Counted from the stretch's first letter, positions 18,336 to 60,400 are shown. The stretch is 64,000 bases of DNA from Oscillospiraceae bacterium (GCA_017458065.1 JAFTGD010000065.1:17957-81956); one strand, 5' to 3'. Notes: generated by a model from the sequence alone, not told the origin. Numbers and translations are program-made.

Positions 18336-18511
18336 CGGCTGCGAAGCCAGCGGAGCCAGTTGCCGACGACCGCCACAAGGGCCAGAGACACCAGAAGAAC
18401 GTTCATCTCGGTTTTCAGGCCGGTGCCGCGCGCGATCAGGACGATCGCAAAGACCGCGATCAGCGTCCAGAAGATGGCCATCACCAGAGTAAAAATACGG
18501 GTCCGTTTCAT
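18332..18511 (-). CDS. small two-TM membrane protein (59 aa)
   Basis: Hand-found and below the track cutoff: MKRTRIFTLVMAIFWTLIAVFAIVLIARGTGLKTEMNVLLVSLALVAVVGNWLRWLRSR. Its ATG overlaps the trmD stop (ATGA) and its stop overlaps the rsmA ATG (ATGA). Both overlaps argue for translational coupling. Confidence 0.6.
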   Translation of the reverse strand: MKRTRIFTLVMAIFWTLIAVFAIVLIARGTGLKTEMNVLLVSLALVAVVGNWLRWLRSR

Positions 18512-20339: not shown

Positions 20340-21251
20340 TCATGCGCCGGTTCCGCTCTCCTGCGGACGGAGGGGCTCCACCCCGTCAAAGCCGGAGAGG
20401 GTCAGGCGCGCATCGACATACTGAAGCTCGCCTTCGAGATCCAGATCGTCCAGCTCATACTCCGTAAGCAGCCGCTCCAGTGCGCCGTCCATCAGCTCTC
20501 GGAGGAAGACGGCAAAGTCCATGTCCACCTGGACGAGCCTGTCGTCATCGTCAACCCAGAAGCTGACAGGGAGGCCCTGCAGGGCCTGCGCTTCCGCGGT
20601 CTCTCCAGCAGCGGAAGTCTCTTCTTCTGCTTCTCCGGTCTCTTCCCCCTCGGGGATGATGACGGCGGCTTCCGCTTCGTTGTCGGGGTCCGCGGTCTCC
20701 GGCCTCTCCAGGTCAAGCAGGACGAGCAGCTCCCCGACGAATTCGTCCGGGAGGATGCCGTCGTAACGCCTGGCATGGGCCCTGTTCACAAGGTCGTCGA
20801 CGGGGTCGGCGAAGTAATCGCCGCAGCGGGCGAGCAGCTTCAGGAGCTCGGCGCTGAGGGTATTCCGGTTCGTTTTCTTTTCCGGGATCAGCTCGCTCCC
20901 GGTATGTTCTTCATCCCAGGGATTGACGATCCAGCTTTCGCTGTTCTTCTGAATATCATAACGCAATTCGCGCTCGACGCCGAGGGTCTCCAGAAGGAGA
21001 TCGGTCCTGATGAGGAGCGGGGACGTCTCGGTATCAAAGCCGCCCGTCACGGTCGCTTCCATCCGAATCTTCTGCCCGCCGACGTCCAGCAGCGCGCCGA
21101 GATAAGCCTCCACATCGGTGTGGAAGCTCTCAAGCTTCGCCATGCGTCTGGCGGTCTTTGTCATCTGGGTCCGGAAAGCGCCGCAGCCGGAAAGCGCCAG
21201 GCACGAGGCCAGCGCCAGCAGCAGCGCGGCCGCTTTTCTCCAATGCTTCAT
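20340..21251 (-). CDS. putative lipoprotein of unknown function
   Basis: The ATG 21251 product starts MKHWRKAAALLLALASCLALSGCG, a signal peptide plus LSGC lipobox. It has an acidic Glu/Asp-rich linker in the middle. I recognise no family. Confidence 0.6.
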   Translation of the reverse strand: MKHWRKAAALLLALASCLALSGCGAFRTQMTKTARRMAKLESFHTDVEAYLGALLDVGGQKIRMEATVTGGFDTETSPLLIRTDLLLETLGVERELRYDIQKNSESWIVNPWDEEHTGSELIPEKKTNRNTLSAELLKLLARCGDYFADPVDDLVNRAHARRYDGILPDEFVGELLVLLDLERPETADPDNEAEAAVIIPEGEETGEAEEETSAAGETAEAQALQGLPVSFWVDDDDRLVQVDMDFAVFLRELMDGALERLLTEYELDDLDLEGELQYVDARLTLSGFDGVEPLRPQESGTGA

Positions 21252-32939: not shown

Positions 32940-33049
32940 TCTGTACTCCGAAAACATCCTGTTTTACGCACCAACGAGGCGAGGATATTTCCCCGCCTCC
33001 CTGGTATGATGGAATCCGCTCTGTGAATGTGGGGCCTTGCGCAGACCTC

Positions 33050-34900
<1,851 letters not shown>

Positions 34901-35004
34901 TTTAAAATCCTCCTGTATAAAAAGATAAGTTTTTACAAAATTGAAAGTGTTTTATCTATAAACGGAGCATGCTCCGGTTATATGCGTTTGTCTGCGGTTT
35001 CCGC

Positions 35005-35652
35005 TCAGTTGGCCACCTTGACCATCGCGAAGCGGATCACCTTGTCGCCGAGCTTGAATCCCTTCTGGAAGACCTCGACGATCTCGTTCTCGCCCTTTTC
35101 CTCATCGTCCACATGCATGACGGCGTTGTGCATCTCGGGGTCGAACTTCTCTCCCAGGCACTCGATCTCTTTGACCCCCAGCTTCTCCAGCGTGGTGCAG
35201 AACTGGGTCATGATCATCTCGACGCCTTTCTTATAGGCCTCGTCCTCGGTGCTCTGCTTGAGTGCGCGCTCGAGGTTGTCGTAAACCGGGAGGAACTGGG
35301 ACACCGCGTTTGCCTTGATGTCGCCGTAGATGGCATCCTTCTCCTTCTGGCTGCGGCGGCGGAAGTTGTCGTACTCGGCGCAGATGCGCAGGAACTTGTC
35401 GTTCAGCTCCGCCTTTTCTTTCTCCAGGGCTTCGATCTTTTCCTCTTCCCTGGAGGGCTTTTTGCCGAATCTGCGTTTTTCCTTTTTCTCCGGTTCCTTC
35501 GCTTCTTCTGCATCCTTCACGTCAGAAGAGGCTTCCGATTCCTTTTCCGCTTCCGGTGTCGTCGCTTCGGGCTGCTGTTCGGCCGCTTCTTCCGGAGTCT
35601 GCGTTTCCGGCGTCTCCTGCTCCGGTATCACATCGTTCTTCTCATCGTTCAT
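35005..35652 (-). CDS. grpE: nucleotide exchange factor GrpE
   Basis: 215 aa with an acidic N-terminus, the GrpE core (AEYDNFRRRSQKE, GFKLGDKVIRFAMVKV) and the expected operon position. Confidence 0.95.
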   Translation of the reverse strand: MNDEKNDVIPEQETPETQTPEEAAEQQPEATTPEAEKESEASSDVKDAEEAKEPEKKEKRRFGKKPSREEEKIEALEKEKAELNDKFLRICAEYDNFRRRSQKEKDAIYGDIKANAVSQFLPVYDNLERALKQSTEDEAYKKGVEMIMTQFCTTLEKLGVKEIECLGEKFDPEMHNAVMHVDDEEKGENEIVEVFQKGFKLGDKVIRFAMVKVAN

Positions 35653-44367: not shown

Positions 44368-45764
44368 TTCATCAAGTTGTCCAGAAGGGACTGGGCCTGA
44401 CGTGTCTGGCTGACACCGATGCTCTGCGCCAGGATCACATCCTGCACGCCGTACTGTTCCGCCACAATGCTCACCGGGGTAAAATTCTTACGGTAATCCA
44501 GAATATAAACCTTGTGATAGTGCTGCGTAAGATATACCGTAAACGGATTGCCGTAGGAATCCTTGATCACCATGCAGTCCGGCGCGTCAGGCAGATTGTC
44601 ATTGGTGAGAATCGTAATAGGGTTATCGCCGGCAATGAAGCAGTTATACTTCATATTCGGCGCTGCCTCGCTCTCGTCCACGATCACCGTTGTGTAGTGC
44701 GGATACCCGGCAATCTCCATGTGGATGTTCTCATTGCCGGGGGGCACCAGGGCGATGACCTCATCGGCTTTGAGGTTGCGGGAGTTCACGGAGTGGGTGT
44801 AGGTCCCTTCAAATTCACCCATGTTCCATTCGGTGAATTCATCCAGAGGAACCGGCTCAAAACCCGCCTCTTCGCAGAACGCCTGATATGCGTAATATGC
44901 CCCGAGCGCTGTCCAGTGGTGGTCGGTGTTGAAGTAGATATACTCCGTATTGTGCTTAAGCATGTTGTTGAAGGCGTTGACTTTATGGACGTTGTCGTTC
45001 TCCTGGGCGAACATATAGCGGAGCGTCTTCCCCTGGTCCGCGCTGCCGAGCTCACTGAGCAGCTCGGAAGAGATCAGGACGCTGATGCTGGTCGGCGCAG
45101 GGAGATTGAAAAAGCGGATTCCCTTGGCCGCCAGAGCGTCTCCTGCCTTATTCATGAGCGCGGCATGGTGGTCGGAAGCAGACTGGTCAAACCCGAGCCT
45201 TGACAGAATCGTTCCATCGATGACAACAAGATCCCCGTAGATACCCGCTTCATCTTCTCCGGCCAGGCCTCCCCAATCCTCAATGACAGCATCGGGATCT
45301 GCCGGCTTCGCCGCTTCCGCCACGATTGCAGCAGCTTCGGCTGCTTCTGCAGCCGCCCGTTCTTCTGCTTCCCTTCTGGCGGCAGCCTCCGCCTCCGCCT
45401 GTTCCAGCAGGGCGTCAAGCTCGTCATTGTCATTCGCCGCGTTGGTCTGGTTCAGCGCGATCTCGTTCTTGCCCAGACCATGCAGTGCGTCCATGCGTTC
45501 GGAAATCTCCAGCATCGTTTCCCGACCAGGGAAGGTGTCAGAAAACCACATGCCGATATCGTCAAAGTAATCGCCGCTCAGAAGGGCGTCGACGGAAAAC
45601 GTCGGAAACTCCCTTAAGGTCCGCTTCTCCCGCACGGAAGCAGCCGGCCGCAGCGGAATCAGGAATGCGATCAAGGTCATGACTGCCAAAACGACGAGGA
45701 ACGGTCCTGCCATCTCGAGCTCATATCTCTTTTTCCCGATTTTCTTTTCTTCTTGTTGACTCAT
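44364..45764 (-). CDS. DHHW-family protein (AlgJ/AlgX-like O-acyltransferase partner)
   Basis: 466 aa with an N-terminal TM anchor, an Ala/Glu-rich linker and the literal DHHW motif (YFNTDHHWTALGAYYAY). GAGGAAGAGG RBS. Confidence 0.85.
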   Translation of the reverse strand: MSQQEEKKIGKKRYELEMAGPFLVVLAVMTLIAFLIPLRPAASVREKRTLREFPTFSVDALLSGDYFDDIGMWFSDTFPGRETMLEISERMDALHGLGKNEIALNQTNAANDNDELDALLEQAEAEAAARREAEERAAAEAAEAAAIVAEAAKPADPDAVIEDWGGLAGEDEAGIYGDLVVIDGTILSRLGFDQSASDHHAALMNKAGDALAAKGIRFFNLPAPTSISVLISSELLSELGSADQGKTLRYMFAQENDNVHKVNAFNNMLKHNTEYIYFNTDHHWTALGAYYAYQAFCEEAGFEPVPLDEFTEWNMGEFEGTYTHSVNSRNLKADEVIALVPPGNENIHMEIAGYPHYTTVIVDESEAAPNMKYNCFIAGDNPITILTNDNLPDAPDCMVIKDSYGNPFTVYLTQHYHKVYILDYRKNFTPVSIVAEQYGVQDVILAQSIGVSQTRQAQSLLDNLMK

Positions 45765-45777
45765 ATTCGCCTCTTCC

Positions 45778-47214
45778 TCAGAATTGGAAGTACAGGAACG
45801 GATTATAGCTCTCGCCTACCAGGGCGCAGGTGGAGAGCAGCAGGAGCAGGATCGGGACCAGCATCTTCCTGCACCCGTTCCAAATGCCGTTTCGCGCGAG
45901 CACATTGGACAGTATTCTCGGCAGCGGAGTACAGGCAACTGCCGAAACCAGCAGCAGAAACAGATTGTTCTGCAGAATTGTCCCCGTGACAAAGTCTGAC
46001 AGCGCATTTCCGTTCAGGCCGAACAGCCCGAGCGCCACCGTCCATCCCAGCCGGATGTCTGTAAAGCGGAACAGCACCCAACCCAGGAAAACCACAAGCA
46101 GCAGATAGAGATGCGGCAGCACGCGGAGATGCTTCAGCACGCGACGCAGGAAGAGCCGCTCAATCATCAGAAAGACAAACCAGTACAGGCCCCAGAGGAC
46201 AAAATTCCAGCTGGCACCATGCCAGAGCCCGGTCAGCGCCCAGACGACAAAGGTGTTAAACACGGTGCGAAGGGCAGATTTCCGGTTCCCGCCAAGAGGG
46301 ATATACACATAGTCCCGGAAGAAGCGGCTCAGAGACATGTGCCATCTGCGCCAGAACTCGGTCACGGAATTTGCCGCATAGGGATAACGGAAATTCTCAG
46401 GATAGTGGAGGCCCAGCATCTTGCCCATGCCGATGGCCATGTCGGAGTAAGCGCTGAAGTCCAGATAAATCTGCATCATGAAAGCCGCCATGCCCATCCA
46501 GGCGCCGAGCACCGTCACGCCCTGCAGATGTGCAAGATTATCCACAAACAGCGCCGGATCCGAAATGGTGCTGTCGCTCAGGAGAAGGGCGTCCGTCAGC
46601 GCGCCGCAGGGGTTTGCAAGTAAAGCTTTTTTTGCAAGCCCGCAGGTGAAGCGGCGGATGCCGTCGGTCATCTCCTCCGCACCGGAACGCCGGACGAAAA
46701 GCTCTTCCGCGATGCTGTTATAACGGACGATCGGTCCGGCGATGCACTGGTGGAACAGCGCAGCATAGAGCAGCACATGCCAGTAGGCATGCTCCGCCTT
46801 GGCATCTCCCCTGTAGACGTCGATCACATAGGTCAGGAGCTGGAAGGTGTAGAAGGAAATGCCGATCGGAAGCGTGATGCGCTGTACCAGTTCCGGGACC
46901 TCGCCGAAAATGGAGCAGACGAGCCCGGCGTACTTGAAGACGCCGATCAGCATCAGGTCGATCAGGGTCGCGAGCGCAACCCAGGCCTTCCGCTCTCCCT
47001 GCCCTTCGGCCGCATCGATCCGGAGCGCGCAGAACCAGTCCACCGCCGCCATCAGCATCAGAAGCAGCACATACTTGGGTTCGCCCCAGGCATAGAAGAT
47101 CAGCGAGAAAATGAGCAGCGAGATATTCTTCGCCCGCAGGCTCCCGCACAGGGCACATGCCGCCAGCGACAGCGGAAGGAACGCATATAGAAAGATCAGA
47201 CTTGAAAAAACCAT
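45778..47214 (-). CDS. MBOAT-family membrane O-acyltransferase (AlgI/DltB/PatA-like)
   Basis: 478 aa and multi-TM, with FWRRWHMSLSRFFRDYVYIPLGGNR containing the conserved MBOAT His. Confidence 0.92.
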   Translation of the reverse strand: MVFSSLIFLYAFLPLSLAACALCGSLRAKNISLLIFSLIFYAWGEPKYVLLLMLMAAVDWFCALRIDAAEGQGERKAWVALATLIDLMLIGVFKYAGLVCSIFGEVPELVQRITLPIGISFYTFQLLTYVIDVYRGDAKAEHAYWHVLLYAALFHQCIAGPIVRYNSIAEELFVRRSGAEEMTDGIRRFTCGLAKKALLANPCGALTDALLLSDSTISDPALFVDNLAHLQGVTVLGAWMGMAAFMMQIYLDFSAYSDMAIGMGKMLGLHYPENFRYPYAANSVTEFWRRWHMSLSRFFRDYVYIPLGGNRKSALRTVFNTFVVWALTGLWHGASWNFVLWGLYWFVFLMIERLFLRRVLKHLRVLPHLYLLLVVFLGWVLFRFTDIRLGWTVALGLFGLNGNALSDFVTGTILQNNLFLLLVSAVACTPLPRILSNVLARNGIWNGCRKMLVPILLLLLSTCALVGESYNPFLYFQF

Positions 47215-47330: not shown

Positions 47331-47356
47331 AAAATCCCGCCGGGTTTGGCGGGATT
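47331..47356 (-). terminator. intrinsic terminator after carB-dapF-like
   Basis: The minus strand reads AATCCCGCC-AAACC-CGGCGGGATTTTGCAT, a 9-bp GC stem plus a U-run, about 80 nt after the stop at 47436. Confidence 0.7.
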
Positions 47357-47435: not shown

Positions 47436-50400
47436 TCAGTACTCGAAGATGCCGGTGAACACTGTGGTCGCGCCGCCGGTGAGGAGCACGCGGTCGTCGC
47501 AGTAGTTGACCGTCAGGTCGCCGCCGGGGAGGGTCACCTTGACATCCGTTCCCTTGTCGCAGTATCCGCTCTCCACCGCGGCTGCCACCGCGGCGCAGGC
47601 CCCCGTCCCGCAGGCCAGGGTCTGGCCGCTGCCGCGTTCCCAGACGCGCATGCGCAGCGCGGTGCGGCTCACCACACGAACGAACTCCGCGTTCACCCGC
47701 TCGGGGAACATCTCCGCGTGCTCAAACTGCGGGCCGACGGTCTCCAGGTCCAGCGTATCGATGTTGTCACAGAAGACCACGCAGTGGGGGTTGCCGACCG
47801 TGAGGCAGGTAACCTTCCATTCCCTGCCGCCGATCTGAACGGGGCTCTGCACCAGTCGCTCCTGCGCTGTGAGAACCGGGATCTCCGCCGGGACCAGACT
47901 CGCCCGACCCATGTCCACCGTGACCGAGCTCACCGTACCGTCCCGGCAGAAAAGCCGCAGATGCCGCAGTCCGCCTGCAGTCTCCACCGTGAGGAACTCT
48001 GTGCGCAGATATCCCCTGTCATACAGGTATTTGCCGATGCAGCGCAGGTTGTTCCCCGCCATCATGCCCTCGCTCCCGTCGCGGTTGAAGCTGCGCATCT
48101 TTACATCGGCGATACGGGAGTCCTCAATCAGGACGATGCCGTCAGCGCCGATGCCGTAATGCGGCTGGCACAGGGAGACACAGAGCGATTCCGGACAGGA
48201 GATGGAGCCGTCAAAGTTCTCGATAAAGATATAGTCGTTCCCGCAGTCCTGCATTTTGGTGAAGGGGATGCTCTGCCGCCAGCGGCGCATCCGGTTCAGG
48301 TCGACCAGCTCAGTGTTGCTCTCGTGGTAGCGCCCGGCGATGCTGTCGGCGAGCGCATTTGCGGTATCCAGCGAAGTGAGGCACGGAATGCCCAGCTGCA
48401 TGGCCCGCCTGTGAAGCGCGATATAGTCCCCCATGGTGCCGTCCTTCACTGCACCGGTATAGACGATCAGCTCGAGGGCCGTCCGCCTTGCCGTCTCCGC
48501 TGCGTCCGCTGAGCGCAGGCTCTCCGGATCAAAGGCCTCCGCCGGGAGCCCAGCGTCACGGATCGCCGCCGCGGTCCCTTCCGTCGCGTAAAGCTTCAGC
48601 CCGAGGTCATGGAAGCGCCTCGCCAGCGTCAGGATCTCGGGGTAGTCCGCTGTCTCAACACTGAGGAGCACGCTGCTGCCCGCTGACGGGAGCCGGAAGC
48701 CGGCCGCCGTGAGCCCTTTGAACATGGCCTCGGCAAAGCTGCGGCCGATGCCCAGCACCTCGCCGGTGGATTTCATCTCCGGACCGAGGATGGAGTTCGC
48801 GTCGGACAGCTTCTCAAAGGAAAACACCGGTACCTTCACTGCGTAGTAGGGCGGCGTGCGCCAGAGCCCCGTGCCGTAACCGAGCTCCCGCAGGCTGGCG
48901 CCCAGCATGATGTGCGCCGCCAGATCCACCATGGGGACATTGGTCACCTTGGAGATATACGGCACGGTACGGGAGGCACGGGGGTTGACCTCGATGACAT
49001 ACAGCTCGTCCTCATAGATGAGATACTGGATGTTCACAAGTCCTTTCGTCCCCAGGGCGAGCGCCAGCTTCTCCGACACGTCGCAGATCCGGTGGAGGAA
49101 ACGGTCGGTGAGGTTATAGGGCGGATAGACCGCGATAGAGTCCCCGCTGTGGACGCCGGCCCGCTCAATGTGCTCCATGATCCCCGGGATCAGCACATCG
49201 GTCCCGTCGGAGATGACGTCGACCTCCAGCTCGATCCCCGGCATGTATTTGTCCACCAGAACGGGGTTCTCGATCCCGCCTGCGAGGATTCCCTTCATAT
49301 AGGTCTCAGTGGTCTCCGGATCCCGGGAGATGCACATGTTCTGTCCGCCTATGACATAGCTCGGCCGGAGCAGGACGGGATAGCCCAGCTCTTCGGCCGC
49401 CTGCAGCGCTTCCTCCAGGGTGTTCACGCCGCGGCCGCGGGGCCGCCGGATGCCGAAGCGCTCCAGCAGCTCATCGAAGCGGGCGCGGTCTTCGGCGATA
49501 TCGATGCTGTCCGCGGAGGTGCCGAGGATCTGAATGCCCTGATCCGAGAGAAACTTGGTCAGCTTGATGGCGGTCTGGCCGCCGAAAGCCACCACAACGC
49601 CGACGGGGTTCTCCACCCGGATCACGTTCCACACGTCCTCCGGACAGAGCGGTTCAAAGTACAAACGGTCTGCGGTGTCATAGTCGGTGGAGACGGTCTC
49701 GGGGTTATTGTTCACGATCACCACGTCATAGCCCATCTCCCGCAGGGTCCAGACACAGTGGACCGAGCTGTAGTCGAACTCGATCCCCTGCCCGATCCGG
49801 ATTGGGCCGGAGCCCAGCACCATCACGACGGGCTTTCCGCTGCGGTGGAAGCTTCGCGACTCGCAGACGCTGTCGCATGTGGAGTAGAAATAAGGCGTCT
49901 GCGCATCGAATTCGGCCGCGCAGGTATCCACCATCTTATACACAAACGCAGAGCTCTTCGGCAGCGGAGCCCCGCTCAGTCTCTCCAGAGCAGCGTCGGT
50001 ATAACCGAGCTTTTTCGCCGTCTCATAGTCCTCTCTGCTGAGAGGCCGCCCCTCGATGCCCTTTTCCAGCTCGGCCATGTTTGCGAGCTTATGGAGGAAG
50101 AAGCGGTCAATGCGGGTGATCTGATGGATCTCCTCCGCCGTGATCCCCTGCTTCAGCGCTTCGAAGACCGTGAACAGGCGGTGGTCGTCCTGATCCTGCA
50201 GCCGTTCGGTGATCGGTCTGGCATCCCGGGAAGGCGCGTTCAGGGTATCGAGAGAGATCTCCGCACCGCGCACCGCCTTCATCAGCGCCATCTCGAAGTT
50301 CGGCGCGATGGCCATCACCTCACCGGTTGCCTTCATCTGGGTCCCCAGACGCCGGCTCGCATGGGGGAACTTATCAAAGGGCCATTTTGGCAGCTTCACC

Positions 50401-51461
50401 ACCACGTAATCGAGAGCCGGTTCAAAGCAGGCGCAGGTCTTGCCGGTGATGTCGTTTGTGATCTCATCCAGCGTATAACCCAGAGCAAGCCTGGTGCTGA
50501 TCTTGGCGATGGGGTAGCCGGTGGCCTTGGACGCCAGAGCTGAGGAGCGCGACACACGGGGGTTTACCTCGATCACCGCATATTCAAAGCTCTCCGGGTC
50601 CAGGGCAAACTGGCAGTTGCAGCCGCCCACGATGCCGAGGGCTGTGATGATGTCCAGTGCCGCGCTGCGCAGCATCTGGTACTCCCGATCCGCCAGCGTC
50701 AGCGCCGGCGCCACGACGATCGAGTCGCCTGTGTGGATGCCGACAGGGTCGAAGTTCTCCATCGAGCAGACCGCGATAACGTTGCCGACCGCGTCCCGCA
50801 TGGTCTCAAACTCGATCTCCTTCCAGCCCGAGATGCACTTTTCAACCAGAATCTGGGTGATCGGCGAGAGGTCCAGCCCGTTGCGCGCAATGGCGCTCAG
50901 TTCCTCCGGGTTTTCCGCGATCCCGCCGCCGGTACCGCCGAGGGTATAAGCCGGACGTACAATCACCGGATAGCCGATCTCCCCGGCGATCCCCAGCGCC
51001 TGCTCCACCGTCACGGCGGTAGCAGACGGAATCACCGGCTGACCCATCGCCTCCAGCGTCTCACGAAAACGCTCTCGATCCTCCGCTTTCTCAATGCTCT
51101 CAATATCCGAGCCCAGCAGACGGACGCCGTATTTGGCCAGAGTTCCGTCCCTGCTGAGCTGCATCGCAAGCGTCAGACCGGTCTGTCCTCCCAGGCCCGC
51201 CAGCAGGCCGTCCGGGCGCTCCTTCTCGATGATGCGGCGCAGTGTCTCCGGCGTGAGAGGCTCCAGATAGATGGCGTCGGCGAGCTTCTTGTCGGTCATG
51301 ATGGTTGCGGGATTCGAGTTGACGAGGACGGTCTCGATCCCCTCCTGGCGCAGGATGCGGCAGGCCTGGGCGCCGGCGTAGTCGAATTCCGCCGCCTGCC
51401 CGATAACGATCGGCCCTGAGCCGATCACCAGGACCTTATGGATGCTCTTGTCCTTAGGCAT
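47436..51461 (-). CDS. carB: carbamoyl-phosphate synthase large subunit fused in frame to a C-terminal DapF-like (diaminopimelate epimerase fold) domain
   Basis: 1341 aa. Residues 1-~1060 are a complete CarB (MPKDKSIHKVLVIGSGPIVIGQAAEFDY, a second ATP-grasp half, MGS-like domain). Residues 1065-1341 read IPFTKMQDCGNDYIFIE..FNRDGSEGMMAGNNLRC..VGNPHCVVF..ERGSGQTLACGTGACAA, which are DapF hallmarks. Confidence 0.9.
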   Translation of the reverse strand: MPKDKSIHKVLVIGSGPIVIGQAAEFDYAGAQACRILRQEGIETVLVNSNPATIMTDKKLADAIYLEPLTPETLRRIIEKERPDGLLAGLGGQTGLTLAMQLSRDGTLAKYGVRLLGSDIESIEKAEDRERFRETLEAMGQPVIPSATAVTVEQALGIAGEIGYPVIVRPAYTLGGTGGGIAENPEELSAIARNGLDLSPITQILVEKCISGWKEIEFETMRDAVGNVIAVCSMENFDPVGIHTGDSIVVAPALTLADREYQMLRSAALDIITALGIVGGCNCQFALDPESFEYAVIEVNPRVSRSSALASKATGYPIAKISTRLALGYTLDEITNDITGKTCACFEPALDYVVVKLPKWPFDKFPHASRRLGTQMKATGEVMAIAPNFEMALMKAVRGAEISLDTLNAPSRDARPITERLQDQDDHRLFTVFEALKQGITAEEIHQITRIDRFFLHKLANMAELEKGIEGRPLSREDYETAKKLGYTDAALERLSGAPLPKSSAFVYKMVDTCAAEFDAQTPYFYSTCDSVCESRSFHRSGKPVVMVLGSGPIRIGQGIEFDYSSVHCVWTLREMGYDVVIVNNNPETVSTDYDTADRLYFEPLCPEDVWNVIRVENPVGVVVAFGGQTAIKLTKFLSDQGIQILGTSADSIDIAEDRARFDELLERFGIRRPRGRGVNTLEEALQAAEELGYPVLLRPSYVIGGQNMCISRDPETTETYMKGILAGGIENPVLVDKYMPGIELEVDVISDGTDVLIPGIMEHIERAGVHSGDSIAVYPPYNLTDRFLHRICDVSEKLALALGTKGLVNIQYLIYEDELYVIEVNPRASRTVPYISKVTNVPMVDLAAHIMLGASLRELGYGTGLWRTPPYYAVKVPVFSFEKLSDANSILGPEMKSTGEVLGIGRSFAEAMFKGLTAAGFRLPSAGSSVLLSVETADYPEILTLARRFHDLGLKLYATEGTAAAIRDAGLPAEAFDPESLRSADAAETARRTALELIVYTGAVKDGTMGDYIALHRRAMQLGIPCLTSLDTANALADSIAGRYHESNTELVDLNRMRRWRQSIPFTKMQDCGNDYIFIENFDGSISCPESLCVSLCQPHYGIGADGIVLIEDSRIADVKMRSFNRDGSEGMMAGNNLRCIGKYLYDRGYLRTEFLTVETAGGLRHLRLFCRDGTVSSVTVDMGRASLVPAEIPVLTAQERLVQSPVQIGGREWKVTCLTVGNPHCVVFCDNIDTLDLETVGPQFEHAEMFPERVNAEFVRVVSRTALRMRVWERGSGQTLACGTGACAAVAAAVESGYCDKGTDVKVTLPGGDLTVNYCDDRVLLTGGATTVFTGIFEY

Positions 51462-52572
51462 TTGCGCCCTCCTCTCCGTTCATCATGGCAAGAAAGCGGT
51501 CAAACAGAAAGCCTGTGTCGTGCGGTCCTGCACAGGCCTCCGGATGGAACTGCACCGTGAAGCACTTCTTTCCCGGGTATTCGAGCCCCTCACAGCTCCG
51601 GTCGTTGGCGTTCCAGAAGCTCAGCCCGGCGATCCCCTCCACGCTCTCATTCCGGACAGCGTAGCCATGGTTCTGGGTTGTGATCCAGGTCCGTCTGCCG
51701 TCCGTGACCGGCTGGTTTGCCCCGCGATGGCCGTACTTCAGCTTGTAGGTCTCGCCGCCCATGGCGAGCGCGCAGAGCTGATGCCCGAGACAGATGCCGA
51801 AAACGGGAACCTGTCCCACCAGCTTCCGGATCTGTGCAACCTCATAGACGTTCTCCGCCGGGTCGCCCGGGCCGTTGGAGAGCATCACGCCGTCCGGGTC
51901 CATTGCAAGGATTTCCTCCGCCGGCGTATCGTGCGGAACCAGCGTCACACGGCAGCCTCTCGACGTGAGACTGCGGATGATATTCCGCTTTGCACCGTAG
52001 TCGACCAGCACCACGTGATGGCCTGACGCCCCGGTGCACACAGCGTCTGCCGGGAAGCGGATGCTGTGCCTGGTGCTGACCATCGGGACGACCTTTTCCA
52101 CCCGGTAGCGCTGCACCGGGGCGAGATCAGCGGGGATCTCCCGGCAGAGGCAGGCGTTCATAACGCCCTCTTCACGGATGATCCTCGTGATGGCGCGGGT
52201 ATCCACGCCGCAGATGCCGGGGATGCCGCGCTCATTCAGAAAGCTGTCCAGATCCCCTTCGCTGCGGAAGTTGGACGGACTGCCGCAGAGCTCCCGGACC
52301 ACATAGCCTTTGGCGAAGCAGTCCCCTTCAAAGTCCTGCGGAATAAGCCCGTAATTCCCGATCATGGGGAAGGTCTGCAGAATGATCTGCCCGGCATAGC
52401 TGGGATCGGTCAGGGTCTCGAGGTAGCCGGTCATTCCGGTGGTGAAGACCAGCTCTCCCACCGAAGCGGCTGCCTGTTCTGTATTCCCCCATGCGCCAAT
52501 GGGATGGCCCGAAAAAGCCATCCCGTTTTGCAGTACAAGATATACACTGTCCATATCGTTACTCACTGTCAT
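51454..52572 (-). CDS. carA: carbamoyl-phosphate synthase small (glutaminase) subunit
   Basis: 372 aa with a CPSase_sm N-domain and a class-I GATase with the catalytic FGICLGHQL. Overlaps carB by 8 nt. Confidence 0.95.
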   Translation of the reverse strand: MTVSNDMDSVYLVLQNGMAFSGHPIGAWGNTEQAAASVGELVFTTGMTGYLETLTDPSYAGQIILQTFPMIGNYGLIPQDFEGDCFAKGYVVRELCGSPSNFRSEGDLDSFLNERGIPGICGVDTRAITRIIREEGVMNACLCREIPADLAPVQRYRVEKVVPMVSTRHSIRFPADAVCTGASGHHVVLVDYGAKRNIIRSLTSRGCRVTLVPHDTPAEEILAMDPDGVMLSNGPGDPAENVYEVAQIRKLVGQVPVFGICLGHQLCALAMGGETYKLKYGHRGANQPVTDGRRTWITTQNHGYAVRNESVEGIAGLSFWNANDRSCEGLEYPGKKCFTVQFHPEACAGPHDTGFLFDRFLAMMNGEEGANA

Positions 52573-52632: not shown

Positions 52633-53616
52633 TTACAGCGTTGCAGCCATAACCGCCTTAATTGTGTGCATGCGGTTTTCCGCCTCGTCGAAGACAATCG
52701 ACTGAGGCCCTTCAAACACCTCATTCGTGACTTCCATCTCCGTCAGGCCAAAGGTCTTATAGACTGCCACGGCGTTTTCCGTCTCCAGGTCGTGATAGGC
52801 CGGCAGGCAGTGCATAAACCGGCACTGAGGCCCCGCAGCCCCCATCAGCTGCTGGTTAATCTGATAGGGCAGCAGGTCATGGATACGCTCCGCCCAGACC
52901 GCCTCCGGTTCGCCCATGGAGACCCAGATGTCCGTATACAGCACATCCGCGCCCTGTACGGCCTTCATCGGGTCGGTCTCAAACTCCAGCGTCGCTCCGG
53001 TCTCGGCGGCAACTGCCTTGCACTGCGCGATGAGCGCCGCGTCAGGGAAGTATTTCTCCGGGGCGCAGGCGACAAAGTGCAGGCCCATCTTCGCGCAGCC
53101 AACCATGAGGGAGTTCCCCATGTTGTAGCGCGCGTCCCCGAAGTAGACCAGCTTTCTCCCTTTCAGGCTGCCAAAGTGTTCCCGGATGGTCAGGAAATCC
53201 GCCAGGATCTGCGTCGGGTGGAACTCGTTTGTCAGGCCGTTCCAGACCGGCACGCCCGCATAGGCTGCCAGCTTCTCAACCCGCTTCTGCTCAAAGCCGC
53301 GGTATTCGATCCCGTCGAACATCCGTCCCAGCACCCGCGCTGTATCGGCGATGCTCTCCTTCTTCCCGATCTGAGATCCCTTCGGGTCCAGATAGACCGG
53401 GTGCATGCCCAGATCTGCCGCCGCCACTTCAAAGCTGCAGCGGGTCCTGGTGCTCGTTTTCTCAAAAACCAGGGCGATGTTCTTTCCCTCACAGAGGCGG
53501 TGGGGAATGCCGGCCTTTTTCTTTGCCTTCAGATCCGCCGCCAGATCCAGCAGCCCTTCGATCTCCTCGGAGCTGAAATCCAGCAGCTTCAGGAAGCTTT
53601 TGCCTTTCAGGTTCAT
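52633..53616 (-). CDS. argF: ornithine carbamoyltransferase
   Basis: [11 protein letters not shown].., [13 protein letters not shown] and FMHCLPA are OTCase motifs. ATG 53616 forms an ATGA overlap with the argD stop. The track start 53622 is GTG. Confidence 0.93.
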
Positions 53617-54776
53617 ACACACGCTCCTTTGACAATCTCGATTGCCTTTGCCAGCACATCTTTCGGGATGTTCAGCGCCGGCAGAAGCCGGACCTTGTCC
53701 TTTGCCGTCAGGCAGAGGACACCGTTTTCCATACAGGTCTTGACTACATCCGCCGCAGGCTTCGCGGTCTTGATCCCGATCATCAGTCCCATGCCGCTGA
53801 CCGCCTCAACGCCGGGCGCCCCCTCGAGCATGGAGAAGGCCATCTCACTCTTTGCTTTCACTTCCGCGAGCAGGTCGTCGTCAATTCGCTCCAGAATACT
53901 GATCGCGCCGGCGCAGCAGACCGGGTTCCCGCCGAAGGTGGAGCCGTGGTCTCCGTGGCCGAGGGTAAACTCGGTCTTCTCTCCGAAGAGTACCGCCCCC
54001 AGCGGCAGGCCGCCGCCGATGCCTTTGGCGGTAGAGACGACATCCGGCTGAATGCCGAAGTTCATATAGGCGTATAGTGCTCCGGTACGGCCGTTGCCGG
54101 TCTGGACCTCGTCCACCAGCAGGAGGATATCCTCTTCTTTGCAAAAGGCCGCAAGTCCCTGCACAAAGCTCTTCTCCAGCGGGATGACGCCGCCCTCCCC
54201 CTGGATGCACTCGATCATTACCGCGGCCGCCTTGTTCTCCAGCGCTGCAGTCTTCACCGCCTCCAGGTTGTTCGCCGGCGCGTGTACAAAGCCCGGTGTC
54301 AGAGGCTGGAACAGCTCGTGATAATGGTCCTGACCGGTGGCGGCGAGGGTCGTCAGCGTCCGGCCGTGGAAGCTGTTCTCCATGGTGACGATGGTGTAGT
54401 ATTCCGGTCCCTTCTTCTCGGCAGCGTACTTGCGCGCCGCCTTGATGGCGCCTTCATTCGCTTCGGCGCCGGAGTTGCAGAAAAAGACCTTTTTCATACC
54501 CGTGCGCTCGCACAGTATTTGTGCCAGCTTGGCACAGGGCTCGGTATAGTAGAGGTTGGACATGTGCTGCAGCTTCCCGAGCTGGGCGGTCACCGCCGCC
54601 TGCCACCCGTCATCCGCGATGCCGAAGGCGGTCACACCAATGCCGCTCCCCATGTCGATGTATTCCTTCCCCGTCTCATCGTAGACAAGGGAGCCCTTCC
54701 CGCTGACCAGCTCCACGGGGAAGCGGGCGTAGGTATTGGCAACATACTGCTGATCAAGTGTCTTGAGGTCTTTCAT
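53613..54776 (-). CDS. argD: acetylornithine aminotransferase
   Basis: A class-III aminotransferase starting [21 protein letters not shown], with the PLP-lysine region ([11 protein letters not shown]). ATG 54776 forms an ATGA overlap with the argB stop, and the longer track ORF is not supported. Confidence 0.92.
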
Positions 54777-55648
54777 AGTTCTGTCTCCTCTCCGTAAACC
54801 ATTGTACCTGCGCCTTCGTCCGTCAGGATCTCCATCAGGATCGAATGAGGCACCCTGCCGTCCATGATGATCACGCGCTCGACCCCCCGGTGGATCGCGT
54901 CGATACAGCATTCCACCTTGGGGATCATGCCGCCCGCGATGACGTTCTCTTCAAACAGCTTCACCGCCTCTGCGATGGTGAGCTCCGGGATCAGAGTGCT
55001 CGGGTCGTTCCGGTCCCGCAGGACGCCGGCAATATCCGTCATCATGATAAGCCTCTCCGCCCCCAGCGCACCGGCAATGTAAGCCGCCGCCGTATCGCCG
55101 TTGATGTTGTAGGTGTTGCCCTCGGCATCACAGCCCAGCGTAGATACCACGGGGATATAGCCCTTCTCCAGCAGGTCCAGCACCGGCTCGACGTTGACGC
55201 GGGTGATGCTGCCGACAAAGCCGAGCTCCGCCCGCTTTCTCTTTGCCTCGATGAGTCCGCCGTCCATGCCGGAGATACCCATGGCCTTGCCGCCCTTGAC
55301 CTCCAGGAGCTTGACCAGGGTCTTGTTGACCTTGCCGGCGAGGACCATCTGCACGATGTCCACGGTCTCCTGATCGGTAACGCGCAGTCCGTCCACAAAC
55401 TCCGGCTTTTTCCCAAGGCGGTTCATCATCTCGCTGATCTCGGGTCCGCCGCCGTGCACCAGCACCACCTTGACCCCAACCAGCCAGAGCAGGACGATAT
55501 CCTCCATCACCTGCTGCCGAAGCTGTTCGCTGACCATGGCGTTGCCGCCGTATTTGACGACGACGATTTTCCCGTTATACTGCCGGATGTACGGCAGCGC
55601 CTGCGTGAGCACCTGTGCCCGCTGACTGTTGGTAAATATGTCTTCCAT
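54773..55648 (-). CDS. argB: acetylglutamate kinase
   Basis: 291 aa with KIVVVKYGGNAM and LVHGGGPEI. Confidence 0.95.
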   Translation of the reverse strand: MEDIFTNSQRAQVLTQALPYIRQYNGKIVVVKYGGNAMVSEQLRQQVMEDIVLLWLVGVKVVLVHGGGPEISEMMNRLGKKPEFVDGLRVTDQETVDIVQMVLAGKVNKTLVKLLEVKGGKAMGISGMDGGLIEAKRKRAELGFVGSITRVNVEPVLDLLEKGYIPVVSTLGCDAEGNTYNINGDTAAAYIAGALGAERLIMMTDIAGVLRDRNDPSTLIPELTIAEAVKLFEENVIAGGMIPKVECCIDAIHRGVERVIIMDGRVPHSILMEILTDEGAGTMVYGEETEL

Positions 55649-56863
55649 TTAAGTCCTGTAATCTCCGTTGATCTTCACATAGTCATAGGTGAGGTCGCAG
55701 CCCCAGGCTTTCGCTGCCGCGCTTCCGTCGCCCAGCGTGATGACAATGTCGATCTCACTCTCGTGCAGGACCTCCGCCGCCTTCTCCTCGGAGAACGGGA
55801 TGCCCGCTCCGTCCTTGCAGACCGCAACCGTACCCGCCTCCGACCGGAACTCGACATCCACCTTCGTAATATCCACGTCCGCACCGCTGTAGCCGATGGC
55901 ACAGAGCACGCGGCCCCAGTTGGCATCCTCACCGAACATCGCCGCCTTTGTCAGGCTGGAACTGATCACGCTTCTGGCAACCGTCTTTGCCGCCTTGTCG
56001 TCCTTGGCTCCGGTGACGGTGCACTCCAGCAGCTTTGTCGCGCCTTCCCCGTCTCCGGCGATCATCCGGCAGAGCTGGACCGTGACGGTGTTGAGCGCGC
56101 ACATGAAGGCGCTGAAGTCCTCCCCTTCTTCGGTAATCTCCTCGTTCCCGGCAAGACCGTTTGCCAGCAGCACCACCATGTCGTTGGTGGAGGTGTCGCC
56201 GTCGACGCTGATCATGTTGAAGGTGCTCTGGATGTCCCCCGAGAGCGCTTTCTGCAGCAGGGCGGGGCTCACTGCCGCATCAGTCGTCAGGAACACCAGC
56301 ATTGTCGCCATATTGGGATGGATCATACCGCTGCCCTTGGCAATACCGCCGAGGCGGCAGATCTTCCCGCCGAGGGCAAACTCCACCGCGACGGACTTCT
56401 CTTTCGTGTCCGTGGTCATGATGGCGGCGCAGGCTTCTGAACTGCCTTCCGGGGAGAGCGCTGCGGCGAGCTTCGGGATCCCTGCCGCAATCGGCGCAAT
56501 GGGAAGCGGCTGACCGATCACGCCGGTGGACGCCACGACGACGTCCTCCGCTTTGATTCCAAGGGCTTCAGCCGTCAGACTGCTCATGGTCTCGGCGATC
56601 TCGATGCCGTCGGCATTGCAGGTGTTGGCGTTACCGCTGTTGCAGATCACCGCCTGCGCCTTGCCGTCGGCAATATGGGCCTTGGTCACGGTGAGGGGCG
56701 CGCCCTTCACCAGGTTGGTGGTGTAGACCGTGGCGGCATTGGCCGGGACTTCGCTCACGATCAGGGCCAGGTCCTTTTTCTGCGGGTTTTTCCGGATCCC
56801 GCAGTAGACGCCCGCGGCTTTGAATCCTTTCGCGGCGCAGACGCCGCCGGAGATGATGTTCAT
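55649..56863 (-). CDS. argJ: bifunctional ornithine acetyltransferase / N-acetylglutamate synthase
   Basis: Starts MNIISGGVCAAKGFKAAGVYCGIRKN. The autoprocessing site is PNMATMLVFLTTDA. ATG 56863 is chosen because the track start overlaps argC. Confidence 0.93.
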   Translation of the reverse strand: MNIISGGVCAAKGFKAAGVYCGIRKNPQKKDLALIVSEVPANAATVYTTNLVKGAPLTVTKAHIADGKAQAVICNSGNANTCNADGIEIAETMSSLTAEALGIKAEDVVVASTGVIGQPLPIAPIAAGIPKLAAALSPEGSSEACAAIMTTDTKEKSVAVEFALGGKICRLGGIAKGSGMIHPNMATMLVFLTTDAAVSPALLQKALSGDIQSTFNMISVDGDTSTNDMVVLLANGLAGNEEITEEGEDFSAFMCALNTVTVQLCRMIAGDGEGATKLLECTVTGAKDDKAAKTVARSVISSSLTKAAMFGEDANWGRVLCAIGYSGADVDITKVDVEFRSEAGTVAVCKDGAGIPFSEEKAAEVLHESEIDIVITLGDGSAAAKAWGCDLTYDYVKINGDYRT

Positions 56864-56894
56864 GATGTGTTCCTTTCGCTTTGCGCTGGGCCGG

Positions 56895-57809
56895 TCAGAG
56901 GACCAGGCCTGTCGTCTCATCGACGCCCAATACAATGTTCATGTTCTGGATCGCGGCGCCTGAGGCGCCTTTGCCCAGGTTGTCAAATGTCGAGATCAGC
57001 AGGATGCGATCTTCGTTGCCGGCAACGGTGATCACCATGTCATCCCGCCCGGAGAGGGCGTTCCCCGCGATCAGACCGTCGGTGTATTCCTCATAATGGA
57101 CTACCTTGCTGTGGTAGCAGGCTTTGTAGAGCTGCCTGACATCCTCCGCGCTCCCTTTCAGATCCTTTTGGAACAGGGGAACCGTCACCGCCATGCCGCT
57201 GTAGTAGTCCGCCACAATGGGGCAGAAAAACGGCGCTGTTGTGAGACCGGAGATCTTTACCATTTCTTTCAGATGCTTGTGGCTCTGCCCCAGAGCGTAC
57301 TGTCTGGGCGAATCCAGGGCCGGATCCCGGTCTGCGGACTCATAGTCGGCGATCATACTCTTCCCGCCGCCGGAGTACCCGGTTACCGAAAAACAGGTCA
57401 GCGCCGTCCCGGGAGCGATCAGGCCTTCGTGTACCAGGGGCTCCACCAGCGAGATAAAGCCGCTGGCGTGGCAGCCGGGGTTCCCGATCCGGCGGCTGGC
57501 AGCAATCTTCTCCCGCTGCCCGTGCAGTTCGGGGAAGCCGTAGTCCCAGCCGGGTTCCGTCCGGTGGGCAGTGGAGGTATCGATGATTGCGGTATTCCCG
57601 TGCACCAGTTCCGCCGCCTCGATGGCCGCGGCATCCGGCAGGCACAGAAACGCGATATCCGCCTCGTTGAGGATCGCCTCCCTCGCCGCCTTATCCTTGC
57701 GCAGCTCCGCCGGAAGGCTCAGCAGCTCCAGCTCTTTCCTGTCCGACAGACGCTCGTGGATCCGCAGGCCGGTGGTGCCCGCGCTGCCGTCTATGAATAC
57801 TTTCGTCAT
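56895..57809 (-). CDS. argC: N-acetyl-gamma-glutamyl-phosphate reductase (short, type-2 form)
   Basis: Starts MTKVFIDGSAGTTGLRI, with the active-site region GNPGCHASG. ATG 57809 forms an ATGA overlap with the argH stop. Confidence 0.9.
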   Translation of the reverse strand: MTKVFIDGSAGTTGLRIHERLSDRKELELLSLPAELRKDKAAREAILNEADIAFLCLPDAAAIEAAELVHGNTAIIDTSTAHRTEPGWDYGFPELHGQREKIAASRRIGNPGCHASGFISLVEPLVHEGLIAPGTALTCFSVTGYSGGGKSMIADYESADRDPALDSPRQYALGQSHKHLKEMVKISGLTTAPFFCPIVADYYSGMAVTVPLFQKDLKGSAEDVRQLYKACYHSKVVHYEEYTDGLIAGNALSGRDDMVITVAGNEDRILLISTFDNLGKGASGAAIQNMNIVLGVDETTGLVL

Positions 57810-59182
57810 GTTTCCAGTTCCTTTCGCACGAAGGCGATCTGCTTTTCCACGGAGGCGACGGAAGTCCCGCCCTCGCTGATCCTCTTCTCCATGCATGTCT
57901 TGAGGTCGATCGCCTGATAGAGCTCTTCATCGAAGAACTCACTGTACTGCCGATAGGTCTCGAGCGGAAGCGCCTCCAGGACGGTCCCGTTCTCGATGCA
58001 GAGCCGCACCAGCTGTCCGGAGATCTTGTAAGCGCTCCGGAAGGGCATCCCCTTTTTTACCAGCCAGTCCGCCAGATCCGTTGCGTTGATAAACCCGCTC
58101 TGCGCCGCGTGGAGCATGTTCTCCTTGTTTACGGTCATGGTCGCGAGCATTGGCGTCAGGATTCCGAGACACATTTTCACCGTGTCGCAGGCGTCGAACA
58201 CGCCCTCCTTGTCCTCCTGCATATCCTTGTTATATGCGAGCGGGAGACCTTTCAACGTGGTGAGCAGTCCGATCAGATCTCCGTATACCCGTCCGGTCTT
58301 GCCGCGGATCAGTTCCGCCATGTCGGCGTTCCGCTTCTGCGGCATGATGGAGGAGCCCGTCGTATAGGCGTTGGAGAAGGAGATGAACCGGAACTCCCAG
58401 CTGGCCCAGAGGATCAGCTCCTCCGAGAGGCGGGACAGATGCATCATCAGGATCGAGAGCGTGCTCAGAAGCTCCGCGGCAAAGTCCCGGTCCGAGACGC
58501 CGTCCATGCTGTTGAGGCAGATCCCGTCAAAACCGAGGCGCTCCGCCTCCATCCGGCGGTCCGTGTCATAGGTGGTCCCCGCCAGGGCGCAGCAGCCGAT
58601 GGGCGAGATGTTCATCCGCCTGCGGCAGTCCCGAAGGCGGTCCAGGTCCCGCAGCAGCATCATCGCGTAGGCCATCATGTAGTGCCCGAAGCTCACGGGC
58701 TGCGCCCGCTGCAGATGGGTATATCCCGGCATGATGGTCTCGGTGTGCTGTTCCGCCAGATCTGCCAGCACCTTCAGAATACCGCGGATGAGAGCGGCTA
58801 TCTCGTCACTCTCATCCCTCAGATACATGCGCAGGTCCAGCGCGACCTGGTCGTTCCGGCTGCGCGCGGTGTGCAGCTTCTTTCCGGTGTCGCCGATCCG
58901 TTCGGTCAGTACCTGCTCGACAAACATATGGATGTCTTCGGCACTCCCGTCAATTTTGAGCTTCCCGCTCTCCAGGTCCTCCAGGATACCGGCGAGCCCG
59001 TCTGTCAGCGCTTCACAGTCGCTTTGGGAAAGGATTCCCTTTGCAGCAAGCATCTCGGCATGGGCAATGCTTCCGGTGATGTCCTGACGGAACATCCTCT
59101 GATCAAAGCGGATGGAGGAATTGAAGTCGTCCGCCGCCGGATCGGTGTCCCCGGCTGTGACGCCGGCCCACATCTTTGCCAT
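57806..59182 (-). CDS. argH: argininosuccinate lyase
   Basis: 458 aa with the fumarate-lyase signature GSSIMPQKRNADMAE. Confidence 0.96.
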   Translation of the reverse strand: MAKMWAGVTAGDTDPAADDFNSSIRFDQRMFRQDITGSIAHAEMLAAKGILSQSDCEALTDGLAGILEDLESGKLKIDGSAEDIHMFVEQVLTERIGDTGKKLHTARSRNDQVALDLRMYLRDESDEIAALIRGILKVLADLAEQHTETIMPGYTHLQRAQPVSFGHYMMAYAMMLLRDLDRLRDCRRRMNISPIGCCALAGTTYDTDRRMEAERLGFDGICLNSMDGVSDRDFAAELLSTLSILMMHLSRLSEELILWASWEFRFISFSNAYTTGSSIMPQKRNADMAELIRGKTGRVYGDLIGLLTTLKGLPLAYNKDMQEDKEGVFDACDTVKMCLGILTPMLATMTVNKENMLHAAQSGFINATDLADWLVKKGMPFRSAYKISGQLVRLCIENGTVLEALPLETYRQYSEFFDEELYQAIDLKTCMEKRISEGGTSVASVEKQIAFVRKELET

Positions 59183-59185
59183 GGC

Positions 59186-60400
<1,215 letters not shown>

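Follow-up and report, generated by a model that had tools for sequence, protein, structure and literature searches.

A DapF-derived domain without its first catalytic cysteine fused to CarB in gut Oscillospiraceae: a candidate regulatory module of carbamoyl-phosphate synthetase

Introduction

Carbamoyl-phosphate synthetase (CPSase) is a textbook allosteric enzyme, with regulation mostly worked out in Escherichia coli and mammals. Here we analysed a 64,000-nucleotide stretch of DNA from an Oscillospiraceae bacterium (GCA_017458065.1 JAFTGD010000065.1:17957-81956), referred to throughout as the window, in which the CPSase large-subunit gene carB continues in frame into a domain derived from the diaminopimelate (DAP) epimerase DapF, with an alanine in place of the first of the two catalytic cysteines. 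Like E. coli CarB (1a9x, 1bxr; 1073 amino acids, aa), the window CarB has complete synthetase, oligomerisation and MGS-like domains and an adjacent carA, but it differs by a 277-residue extra domain past the normal C-terminus.

The glutaminase-like domain of human CPS1 and HisZ, a HisRS paralogue that regulates ATP-phosphoribosyltransferase, both act as regulators. The former (5dou, 6uel) is a dead enzyme fold kept within a biosynthetic enzyme that is homologous to the window CarB, while HisZ is a conceptual parallel, an enzyme fold minus a catalytic residue attached to a biosynthetic enzyme. Both differ from the window domain in fold and origin, and the window domain is a candidate, not an established, regulator.

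Among DapF homologues, O-ureidoserine racemase (7vdy) has a changed substrate and a new activity and retains both catalytic cysteines. The same is true of the diaminobutyrate racemase PddB, which also keeps both (PMC8225329). The trans-3-hydroxy-L-proline dehydratases (6r76, 4k7g) belong to the shared fold superfamily and illustrate how a new activity can arise once one Cys is gone. E. coli DapF is, in addition, a non-catalytic protein partner of RppH (6d13; PMC6061855, PMC4227774), a precedent for DapF acting by protein-protein contact rather than epimerisation; unlike the window domain, this DapF is free and fully active, and its partner is an RNA pyrophosphohydrolase rather than CarB. Canonical DapF (TIGR00652/PF01678; 2otn, 9mro, 3ejx, 1gqz) shares with the window domain the full two-lobed fold and all other substrate-contact residues. 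The window domain departs from it in having Ala at the first Cys, in being the C-terminal domain of CarB instead of a free protein, and in lying in an arginine operon instead of a lysine/peptidoglycan context.

Results

CarB continues in frame into a complete DapF fold

The carB::dapF fusion gene (47436..51461, minus strand) is a single unbroken open reading frame (ORF) of 1341 codons plus a TGA stop at 47436-47438. Its ATG and the carA stop overlap by 8 nt (ATGCCTAA), with a ribosome-binding site, GGAGAGGAGG, upstream. CarB proper (residues 1-1043; 48333..51461, minus), delimited with Pfam and NCBIfam, comprises two pre-ATP-grasp/ATP-grasp units, an oligomerisation domain and an MGS-like allosteric domain (residues 942-1029; 48375..48638, minus; PF02142). 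It matched the equivalog NF003671 over residues 1-1043 with 1420.7 bits (cut-off 599) and TIGR01369 with 1395.7 bits (cut-off 1027). Across the fusion protein, Pfam assigned CPSase_L_D1 and CPSase_L_D2 twice each, CPSase_L_D3, MGS (942-1029) and DAP_epimerase (PF01678) twice, the last with 183.7 bits against a cut-off of 34.7; a first-pass annotation of the sequence had anticipated this combination of CPSase, MGS and paired DAP_epimerase domains.

The CarB C-terminal tail and junction (residues 1044-1064, HESNTELVDLNRMRRWRQS; 48270..48332, minus) contain neither a stop nor a start, and the NTELVD(I/L)N motif of this region is conserved across the whole fusion family. The DapF-derived domain that follows (residues 1065-1341; 47439..48269, minus) has a complete two-lobed DAP-epimerase fold and starts at residue 2 of a would-be free DapF (I-P-F-T-K-M-x-x-x-G-N-D-Y). 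The DapF equivalog TIGR00652 matched residues 1066-1339 with 257 bits in the full protein and 262.7 bits for the domain alone (cut-off 114.65), spanning profile positions 2-268 of 270. Because NF003671 covers residues 1-1043 and TIGR00652 residues 1066-1339, both halves are full length with about 20 residues between them, which agrees with the initial description of one 1341-codon frame running from CarB into DapF.

The DapF part is 39-42% identical to the best solved structures (E = 9e-69 to 9mro). A structure prediction, as the first-pass annotation had proposed, was made with AlphaFold for residues 930-1341; mean pLDDT exceeded 90 over most of the DapF domain, and the best Foldseek matches of the modelled domain were DapF structures, with TM scores of 0.85-0.89 (2otn, 9mro). 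In the same model, pLDDT fell below 50 for residues 1044-1053, and pTM was 0.67.

The first catalytic cysteine is replaced by alanine

We aligned the DapF part residue by residue to four solved DapFs (9mro, 2otn, 3ejx and 8qzy). The window sequence 'mAGNNlrc' (GMMAGNNLRC) lies opposite 'mCGNGirc', which places Ala1135 on the first catalytic Cys (Cys73, E. coli/H. influenzae numbering), and 'ACGTGAC' aligns with the second catalytic motif, where Cys1284 is the retained equivalent of Cys217. All four alignments thus uphold the original assignment of a lost first Cys and a second one kept in ACGTG. Ala1135 is encoded by GCG (48057..48059, minus), which differs from TGC/TGT at all three codon positions, as had been stated; Cys1284 is encoded by TGC (47610..47612, minus).

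Cys occupies the first catalytic position in 109 of 110 free-standing DapF representatives, and no other column separated Cys-less fusions from free DapFs as sharply as column 73 (Jensen-Shannon divergence 0.98). All Cys-less homologues found were CarB fusions or fragments of one. The first-pass annotation had set the whole motif MAGNN against CGNG. The Cys-to-Ala part of that contrast is diagnostic, but the final G is not invariant in real DapFs (G in 63 and A in 47 of the 110); 'GNN' is unusual, and only the Cys-to-Ala change is diagnostic. The signature of the window's own subclade is A-G-N-N with N11 and D43 intact. Apart from position 73, the window domain has every residue that we take to contact DAP in the H. 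influenzae and Arabidopsis DapF complexes: N11, N64, G74, N75, N157, H159, N190, E208, R209, C217, G218 and T219.

Catalysis in the DapF family uses a thiolate-thiol (two-base) pair, and in the DapF homologue PddB substitution of either Cys abolishes activity (PMC8225329); the same paper cites an equal dependence on either Cys for M. tuberculosis DapF. Because a two-base mechanism needs both Cys, the window domain should not interconvert LL-DAP and meso-DAP and is predicted to be unable to epimerise DAP, so the family mechanism supports the earlier suggestion that two-base epimerisation is probably lost. The domain belongs to the DapF family by sequence and fold but is without its defining catalytic feature, and it should not be annotated as an epimerase. 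With its catalytic residue missing, its fold kept and signs of purifying selection (see below), it has the features of a pseudoenzyme.

The fusion recurs across Oscillospiraceae and related Clostridia

An identical 1341-aa protein was called on five independent metagenome contigs. A protein search with the junction and DapF domain, of which the best 120 matches (58-76% identity) were considered, returned fusion fragments only, and the catalytic position was Ala in 94 and Gly in 3 of the 97 database matches caught by a motif pattern. At least 600 matching stretches emerged when one genome was scanned for each species. We examined the 80 best of them, and all cover the CarB tail and the DapF part with the same in-frame junction, cultured isolates included; no member without the fusion was seen among them. 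Their labels are almost all Oscillospiraceae, Ruminococcaceae, Christensenellaceae or unclassified Clostridia (metagenome-assembled genomes, MAGs, and isolates), with Acutalibacter, Neglectibacter and Ruminococcus sp. FC2018 among the carriers, and the closest species-level genome match to the window has 78% identity. At the 70 species-level loci with a complete gene, the fusion is a single open frame, stop to stop, of 1290-1428 codons, so the survey of CarB lengths in relatives that had been suggested earlier gave an extended CarB at every complete locus.

A gene of this kind could also arise as an artefact, through a lost stop, a frameshift or a mis-assembly that joins carB to a separate dapF. 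The identical product on five independent contigs, together with the same in-frame junction in 80 species-level genomes including cultured isolates, makes this vanishingly improbable. The argument that Ala1135 is not a base-call error is likewise strengthened, since the same substitution occurs on the five contigs and at 42 of 78 species-level loci.

A stand-alone Ala-type DapF of 284 aa (P0014 and similar) was considered and rejected. In the traced case, P0014, a fusion is split by 10 N at 5921-5930 of a metagenome scaffold (L082), and the N run yields gene calls for a 1047-aa 'CarB' and a 284-aa 'DapF'.

Two fusions carry labels from other groups, Selenomonadaceae (L011) and Treponema (L048). 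They are 56-62% identical to the window over the junction and DapF domain, and their CarB is 61-75% identical to that of the window where full length was comparable, values like those of Oscillospiraceae-labelled loci; we suspect mis-binning or mislabelling. Other DapF fusions in the representative library keep both Cys and join pathway neighbours, namely an aminotransferase (class I/II)-DapF fusion (P0202, 687 aa) and a DapF-Mur ligase fusion (P0230, 776 aa). A further DapF fusion that keeps both Cys (P0160, 687 aa) has an N-terminal part of about 400 residues lacking a family assignment.

Neither a CarB-DapF fusion nor a DapF lacking the Cys was described in any paper returned by full-text searches of the literature library. 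The fusion with a lost Cys is a conserved and apparently undescribed trait of many gut Oscillospiraceae.

Cys-type and Ala-type fusions occupy different gene neighbourhoods

The catalytic residue and gene context were scored at 78 species-level fusion loci, with dapL or pyrG counted when found within 4 kb downstream on the same strand. Cys-type fusions, which read 'MCGN[GA]IRC' (22/78 loci), had arginine genes directly 5' of carA in 0 of 17 cases and dapL/pyrG downstream in 13 of 22, whereas Ala-type fusions (42/78 loci) had arginine genes in this position in 21 of 28 cases and dapL/pyrG downstream in 0 of 32. The remaining 14 of 78 loci (11 Gly, 2 Ser, 1 Phe) had 2 of 8 and 0 of 12, respectively. 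Between Ala and Cys types, the Fisher p values were approximately 3e-7 for arginine genes and 4e-7 for dapL/pyrG. The aminotransferase downstream of Cys-type fusions is LL-DAP aminotransferase (TIGR03542, 491-509 bits; cut-off 364.7).

Cys-type fusions (L038, L050, L060, L061, L078, L081), carried by Ruminococcus, Acutalibacter, Neglectibacter, Christensenellaceae and others, share the architecture, junction and family-specific motifs of the window protein and fall with it in one clade. Unlike the window protein, they have both Cys, invariant N11 and D43 and an intact CarB RxxDK motif, with dapL and/or pyrG downstream and no arginine operon upstream. Cys-type fusions are plausibly bifunctional enzymes.

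A second DapF copy near the fusion was found only in Acutalibacter L050 and Neglectibacter L060 among 81 related loci, both of them Cys-type. A free canonical dapF lies 16 nt downstream of the fusion in L050 (10997-11839) and 1.8 kb downstream in L060 (12769-13626); pyrG and dapL follow, and two DapF-type domains lie within about 3 kb. Identity between the free copies and Cys-type fused domains is 58-64% (62-64% in the case of Neglectibacter), equal to or higher than that to any of the nine nearest other free-standing representatives (at most 58%). All matches in a homologue search started from the Neglectibacter free DapF came from relatives of Neglectibacter and Acutalibacter, which are Cys-type lineages. 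The free dapF and the fused domain are apparently a tandem duplicate.

In L031, an Ala-type MAG close to the window subclade, a partial LL-DAP aminotransferase (20347-20949; 199 bits over half the model) lies 9 kb downstream of the fusion, with pyrG on the opposite strand. These genes may be a remnant of an ancestral carB::dapF-dapL/pyrG neighbourhood, and the aminotransferase hints at LL-DAP production in organisms of this kind, which would then require an epimerase somewhere.

The fusion appears to predate loss of the cysteine

In a neighbour-joining tree of 210 DapF domains with moderate bootstrap support, the fused domains form one clade, with the free copies of L050 and L060 near its base. 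Cys-type fusions make up the basal grade, nearest to free-standing DapFs, and a derived Ala clade holds 45 Ala, 7 Gly, 1 Ser and 0 Cys members. In bootstraps with the catalytic column removed, the Ala clade was free of Cys members in 30 of 50 replicates, and in 40 of 50 it had no more than one. The fused set in these bootstraps also took in one free protein (P0137) and a fusion fragment that is truncated (P0121). CarB identity to the window separates the same Ala clade without overlap, and the Ala clade correlates with arginine-operon placement. Gly, Ser or Phe members (L048, L059, L066, L071, L073, L077 and L080) are scattered within the Cys grade, which points to repeated independent Cys losses. 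Because Cys-type fusions are basal and 109 of 110 free DapFs keep Cys, we conclude that fusion came first, with Cys dispensable only in the fused context. Taken together, the tree indicates that the fusion predates Cys loss and that the Cys was lost later, more than once.

The comparison places the fusion event in a clostridial ancestor whose present-day descendants include Oscillospiraceae, Ruminococcaceae and related groups. There, a dapF lying 3' of carB in a carA-carB-dapF-dapL neighbourhood became joined to it, the short junction apparently having been crossed by read-through, and the first fused domain retained both cysteines. In the lineage leading to the window organism, the fused domain then lost Cys73, and the gene is now mostly last in an arginine operon.

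Repeated Cys loss from a domain that is itself never lost could also mean that the DapF domain became necessary for CarB to fold or oligomerise. Catalysis would then have passed to a second DapF, which made the Cys dispensable but not the domain, and no regulatory ligand would be involved. Several observations fit such a structural dependence, including the lack of a fusion-free member among the best 80 loci, the free dapF paralogue in two Cys-type genomes, and the conserved family-specific surface motifs [CS]PES and NTELVD(I/L)N. DapF itself is a dimer, and position 268, which corresponds to E. coli Y268 (Y268A mutant structure, 4ik0), is always Y or F in the fusions. If the domain were kept for structure alone, however, polar cleft residues should drift, yet they are conserved in 60-61 of 61 Cys-less fusions that share 50-78% identity overall, and relaxation occurs only at N11 and D43. 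We therefore rate this explanation as unlikely, though worth keeping in view.

The DAP-binding pocket is conserved after loss of the cysteine

Against four close relatives, dN/dS was 0.17-0.25 for the DapF part and 0.13-0.22 for CarB, ratios that are approximate because dS was near saturation. Across Ala-type fusions, identity to the window was 50-72% for the DapF-derived domain and 37-68% for the MGS allosteric domain, the former being better conserved in all but one Ala-type locus. These values indicate purifying selection on the domain after Cys loss. A dead, functionless remnant on its way out would account for the missing Cys and for N11 and D43 starting to vary. It is hard to reconcile with dN/dS of about 0.2, similar to CarB, with full length and an intact frame at all 70 complete loci, with conservation that exceeds that of CarB's allosteric domain at every Ala-type locus except one, or with a confident model of the DapF fold, and we consider it very improbable. 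Both decay and artefact are effectively excluded.

Pocket residues were counted in 61 Cys-less fusions in E. coli numbering. N190, E208, R209, G218 and T/S219 are kept in 61/61, N64, N75, N157, H159 and C217 in 60/61, and G74 in 58/61. The conserved pocket includes the site for the distal L-amino-acid end of DAP. Relaxation among pocket residues is limited to N11, which is Asp in 13 Cys-less fusions, and D43, which is Tyr/Glu in 12; both are invariant in the 22 Cys-type loci, and in our own judgement both sit beside the lost Cys. Because the rest of the pocket is conserved, the domain may still bind DAP or a similar amino acid.

The vacated position 73 takes Ala, Gly, Ser or Phe; a position that tolerates all four has therefore received no new catalytic group. 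In a column-by-column contrast of Cys-less fusions with free DapFs, no compensating active-site base was judged plausible. The clade-specific residues C25, N18, E49, R63/65 and N76 were considered as a new base, and none was judged plausible; C25 presumably lies opposite the S of S-P-E in the E. coli DapF sequence, and its distance from the pocket is our own structural judgement.

The retention of Cys217, His159 and Glu208 in 60-61 of 61 Cys-less members raises the alternative that the domain is still an enzyme with a different, one-base chemistry run by this half-site. It could epimerise slowly with the help of water or, given a DAP-like or ureido amino acid as substrate, catalyse dehydration, beta-elimination or exchange of the alpha proton. 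In O-ureidoserine racemase (7vdy) and PddB (PMC8225329), the DapF fold acts on other substrates. One-Cys dehydratases (6r76, 4k7g) are among the structural neighbours of the domain, and there is a parallel in the proline-racemase relatives that became trans-3-hydroxy-L-proline dehydratases after loss of one Cys. Those dehydratases carry Thr at the changed position, which counts against a shared chemistry, as does the mixture of Ala, Gly, Ser and Phe in the fusions, which offers no defined catalytic group, and in which Phe would exclude water. No column holds a new clade-wide candidate base near the site, and the arginine-operon context points to no substrate with a beta-leaving group. We consider this alternative improbable. 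Membership of the window domain in the one-Cys dehydratase family itself was rejected, with 13-17% identity and 15.4 bits to NF047722 against a cut-off of 550.

A putative nucleotide-effector motif of CarB is eroded in the Ala clade

We aligned the window CarB to 1a9x to examine its effector sites. The R950-x-x-D-K954 motif (E. coli numbering) reads E-T-A-D-Y at CarB residues 936-940, so R950 is E and K954 is Y; E892 is V, T974 and T977 are kept, and the alignment past 988 is unreliable. From E. coli structural work, we take R950/K954 (RxxDK) to be the IMP/UMP nucleotide site and E892 the ornithine site. The motif is invariant in Cys-type fusions, with its Lys kept in 18/18, whereas 26 of 32 Ala-clade members have Y, Q, L, R or some other residue in place of the Lys. 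This erosion hints that the regulatory logic may have changed in the Ala clade.

A ligand-binding role is the favoured reading

Collectively, these findings suggest that the DapF-derived domain most likely has no enzymatic role and instead serves ligand binding or structure. Our favoured reading, which we regard as evenly poised, is that it serves as a non-catalytic, epimerase-dead, ligand-binding regulatory module of CarB. Purifying selection maintains the domain, whose DAP-type binding pocket is intact apart from the lost Cys. Attached next to the CarB allosteric domain, it would sense DAP or a similar L-diamino/ureido amino acid and modulate carbamoyl-phosphate synthesis. Ligand sensing is favoured over altered chemistry because Ala, Gly, Ser or Phe at position 73 argues against a new catalytic residue, and it is further favoured by the approximately 98-100% conservation of the other DAP-contact residues in the 61 Cys-less fusions. 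A more specific version, which we put forward tentatively, is that the domain provides a new allosteric input that tunes the arginine-pathway CPSase through the MGS-like domain and replaces the eroded nucleotide site. Candidate ligands would be DAP, lysine, ornithine, citrulline or a similar diamino/ureido amino acid, with the ornithine link being speculation.

Several points weigh against a regulatory role. Full retention of Cys217, His159 and Glu208 also fits a surviving half-reaction, and the stability of the fold could account for part of the pocket conservation. RxxDK is eroded along with membership of the Ala clade and not with Cys loss, since the Lys is still present in Gly and Ser types that fall elsewhere. 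The neighbour-joining tree has moderate bootstrap support. How the DapF-derived domain is oriented relative to the allosteric domain is not defined by the AlphaFold model (residues 930-1341), and hence no interface is claimed. A genome without another active DapF would need either a catalytic fused domain or a route to meso-DAP that bypasses DapF.

The fusion gene ends an arginine operon in the window

In the window (GC 57.7%), carB::dapF is the last gene of the co-directional block argG-argH-argC-argJ-argB-argD-argF-carA-carB::dapF. The glutaminase subunit gene carA (51454..52572, minus; NF009475, 414.7 bits) is preceded by an arginine biosynthesis block (52633..60400, minus) whose genes all scored above cut-off with curated NCBIfam arginine-pathway models. 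With coordinates given as maximal ORFs on the minus strand, equivalog models identified argG (59186-60400), argH (57806-59182), argC (56895-57896), argJ (55649-56935) and argF (52633-53622), an equivalog_domain model argB (54773-55648), and a subfamily model argD (53613-54911). About 80 nt past the carB::dapF stop lies a palindromic G+C-rich hairpin (47333..47356), flagged on the plus strand only; read on the minus strand, its stem is followed by TTTTGCATGCTGTTG. This hairpin is likely the end of the arginine operon.

A tblastn search of the 64-kb window with the domain found the fusion alone and no other DapF homologue. No lysine/DAP genes were present among the neighbours of the fusion in the window or at the Ala-type locus of an isolate (L024).

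Directly downstream of the fusion gene on the minus strand, an MBOAT/DltB-like acyltransferase is encoded at 45778-47214, a DHHW/AlgX-like protein at 44364-45764 and an 834-aa protein with CotH-kinase and lamin-tail domains at 41863-44367. This trio (41863-47214) looks like a surface-polymer acylation module, and the MBOAT-DHHW pair is also found 3' of the fusion gene on an ENA contig (L001). Elsewhere in the window, a 737-aa ORF (33023-35236, plus) matches the Pfam family PF10712 'NAD-GH' (E = 2e-147) and is antisense to a 616-aa ORF (33050-34900, minus); matches to PF10712 are often antisense translations of a conserved gene, and we presume that one member of the pair is a shadow ORF. In a 434-aa ORF (18508-19812, minus), a TrmD tRNA (m1G) methyltransferase domain is joined to a GNAT acetyltransferase domain at the C-terminus.

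Discussion

The fusion causes confusion in existing annotations. JGI calls the free 280-aa DapF of Acutalibacter muris (P0378) 'carbamoyl-phosphate synthase large subunit', and NCBI calls CarB-DapF fragments (P0015, P0020 and similar) 'diaminopimelate epimerase, partial'. The fusion could also lead metabolic reconstructions to credit genomes with a DapF activity that the domain probably lacks.

A large and abundant group of gut and rumen Clostridia has a conserved 277-residue extra domain at the regulatory end of CarB. Free DapF, the Cys-type fusion beside dapL and the Cys-less fusion in the arginine operon form a natural before-and-after series, which makes the birth of a pseudoenzyme domain directly testable. 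If the domain does act as an allosteric input to CPSase, a former enzyme would have been turned into a metabolite sensor across a large group of gut Oscillospiraceae.

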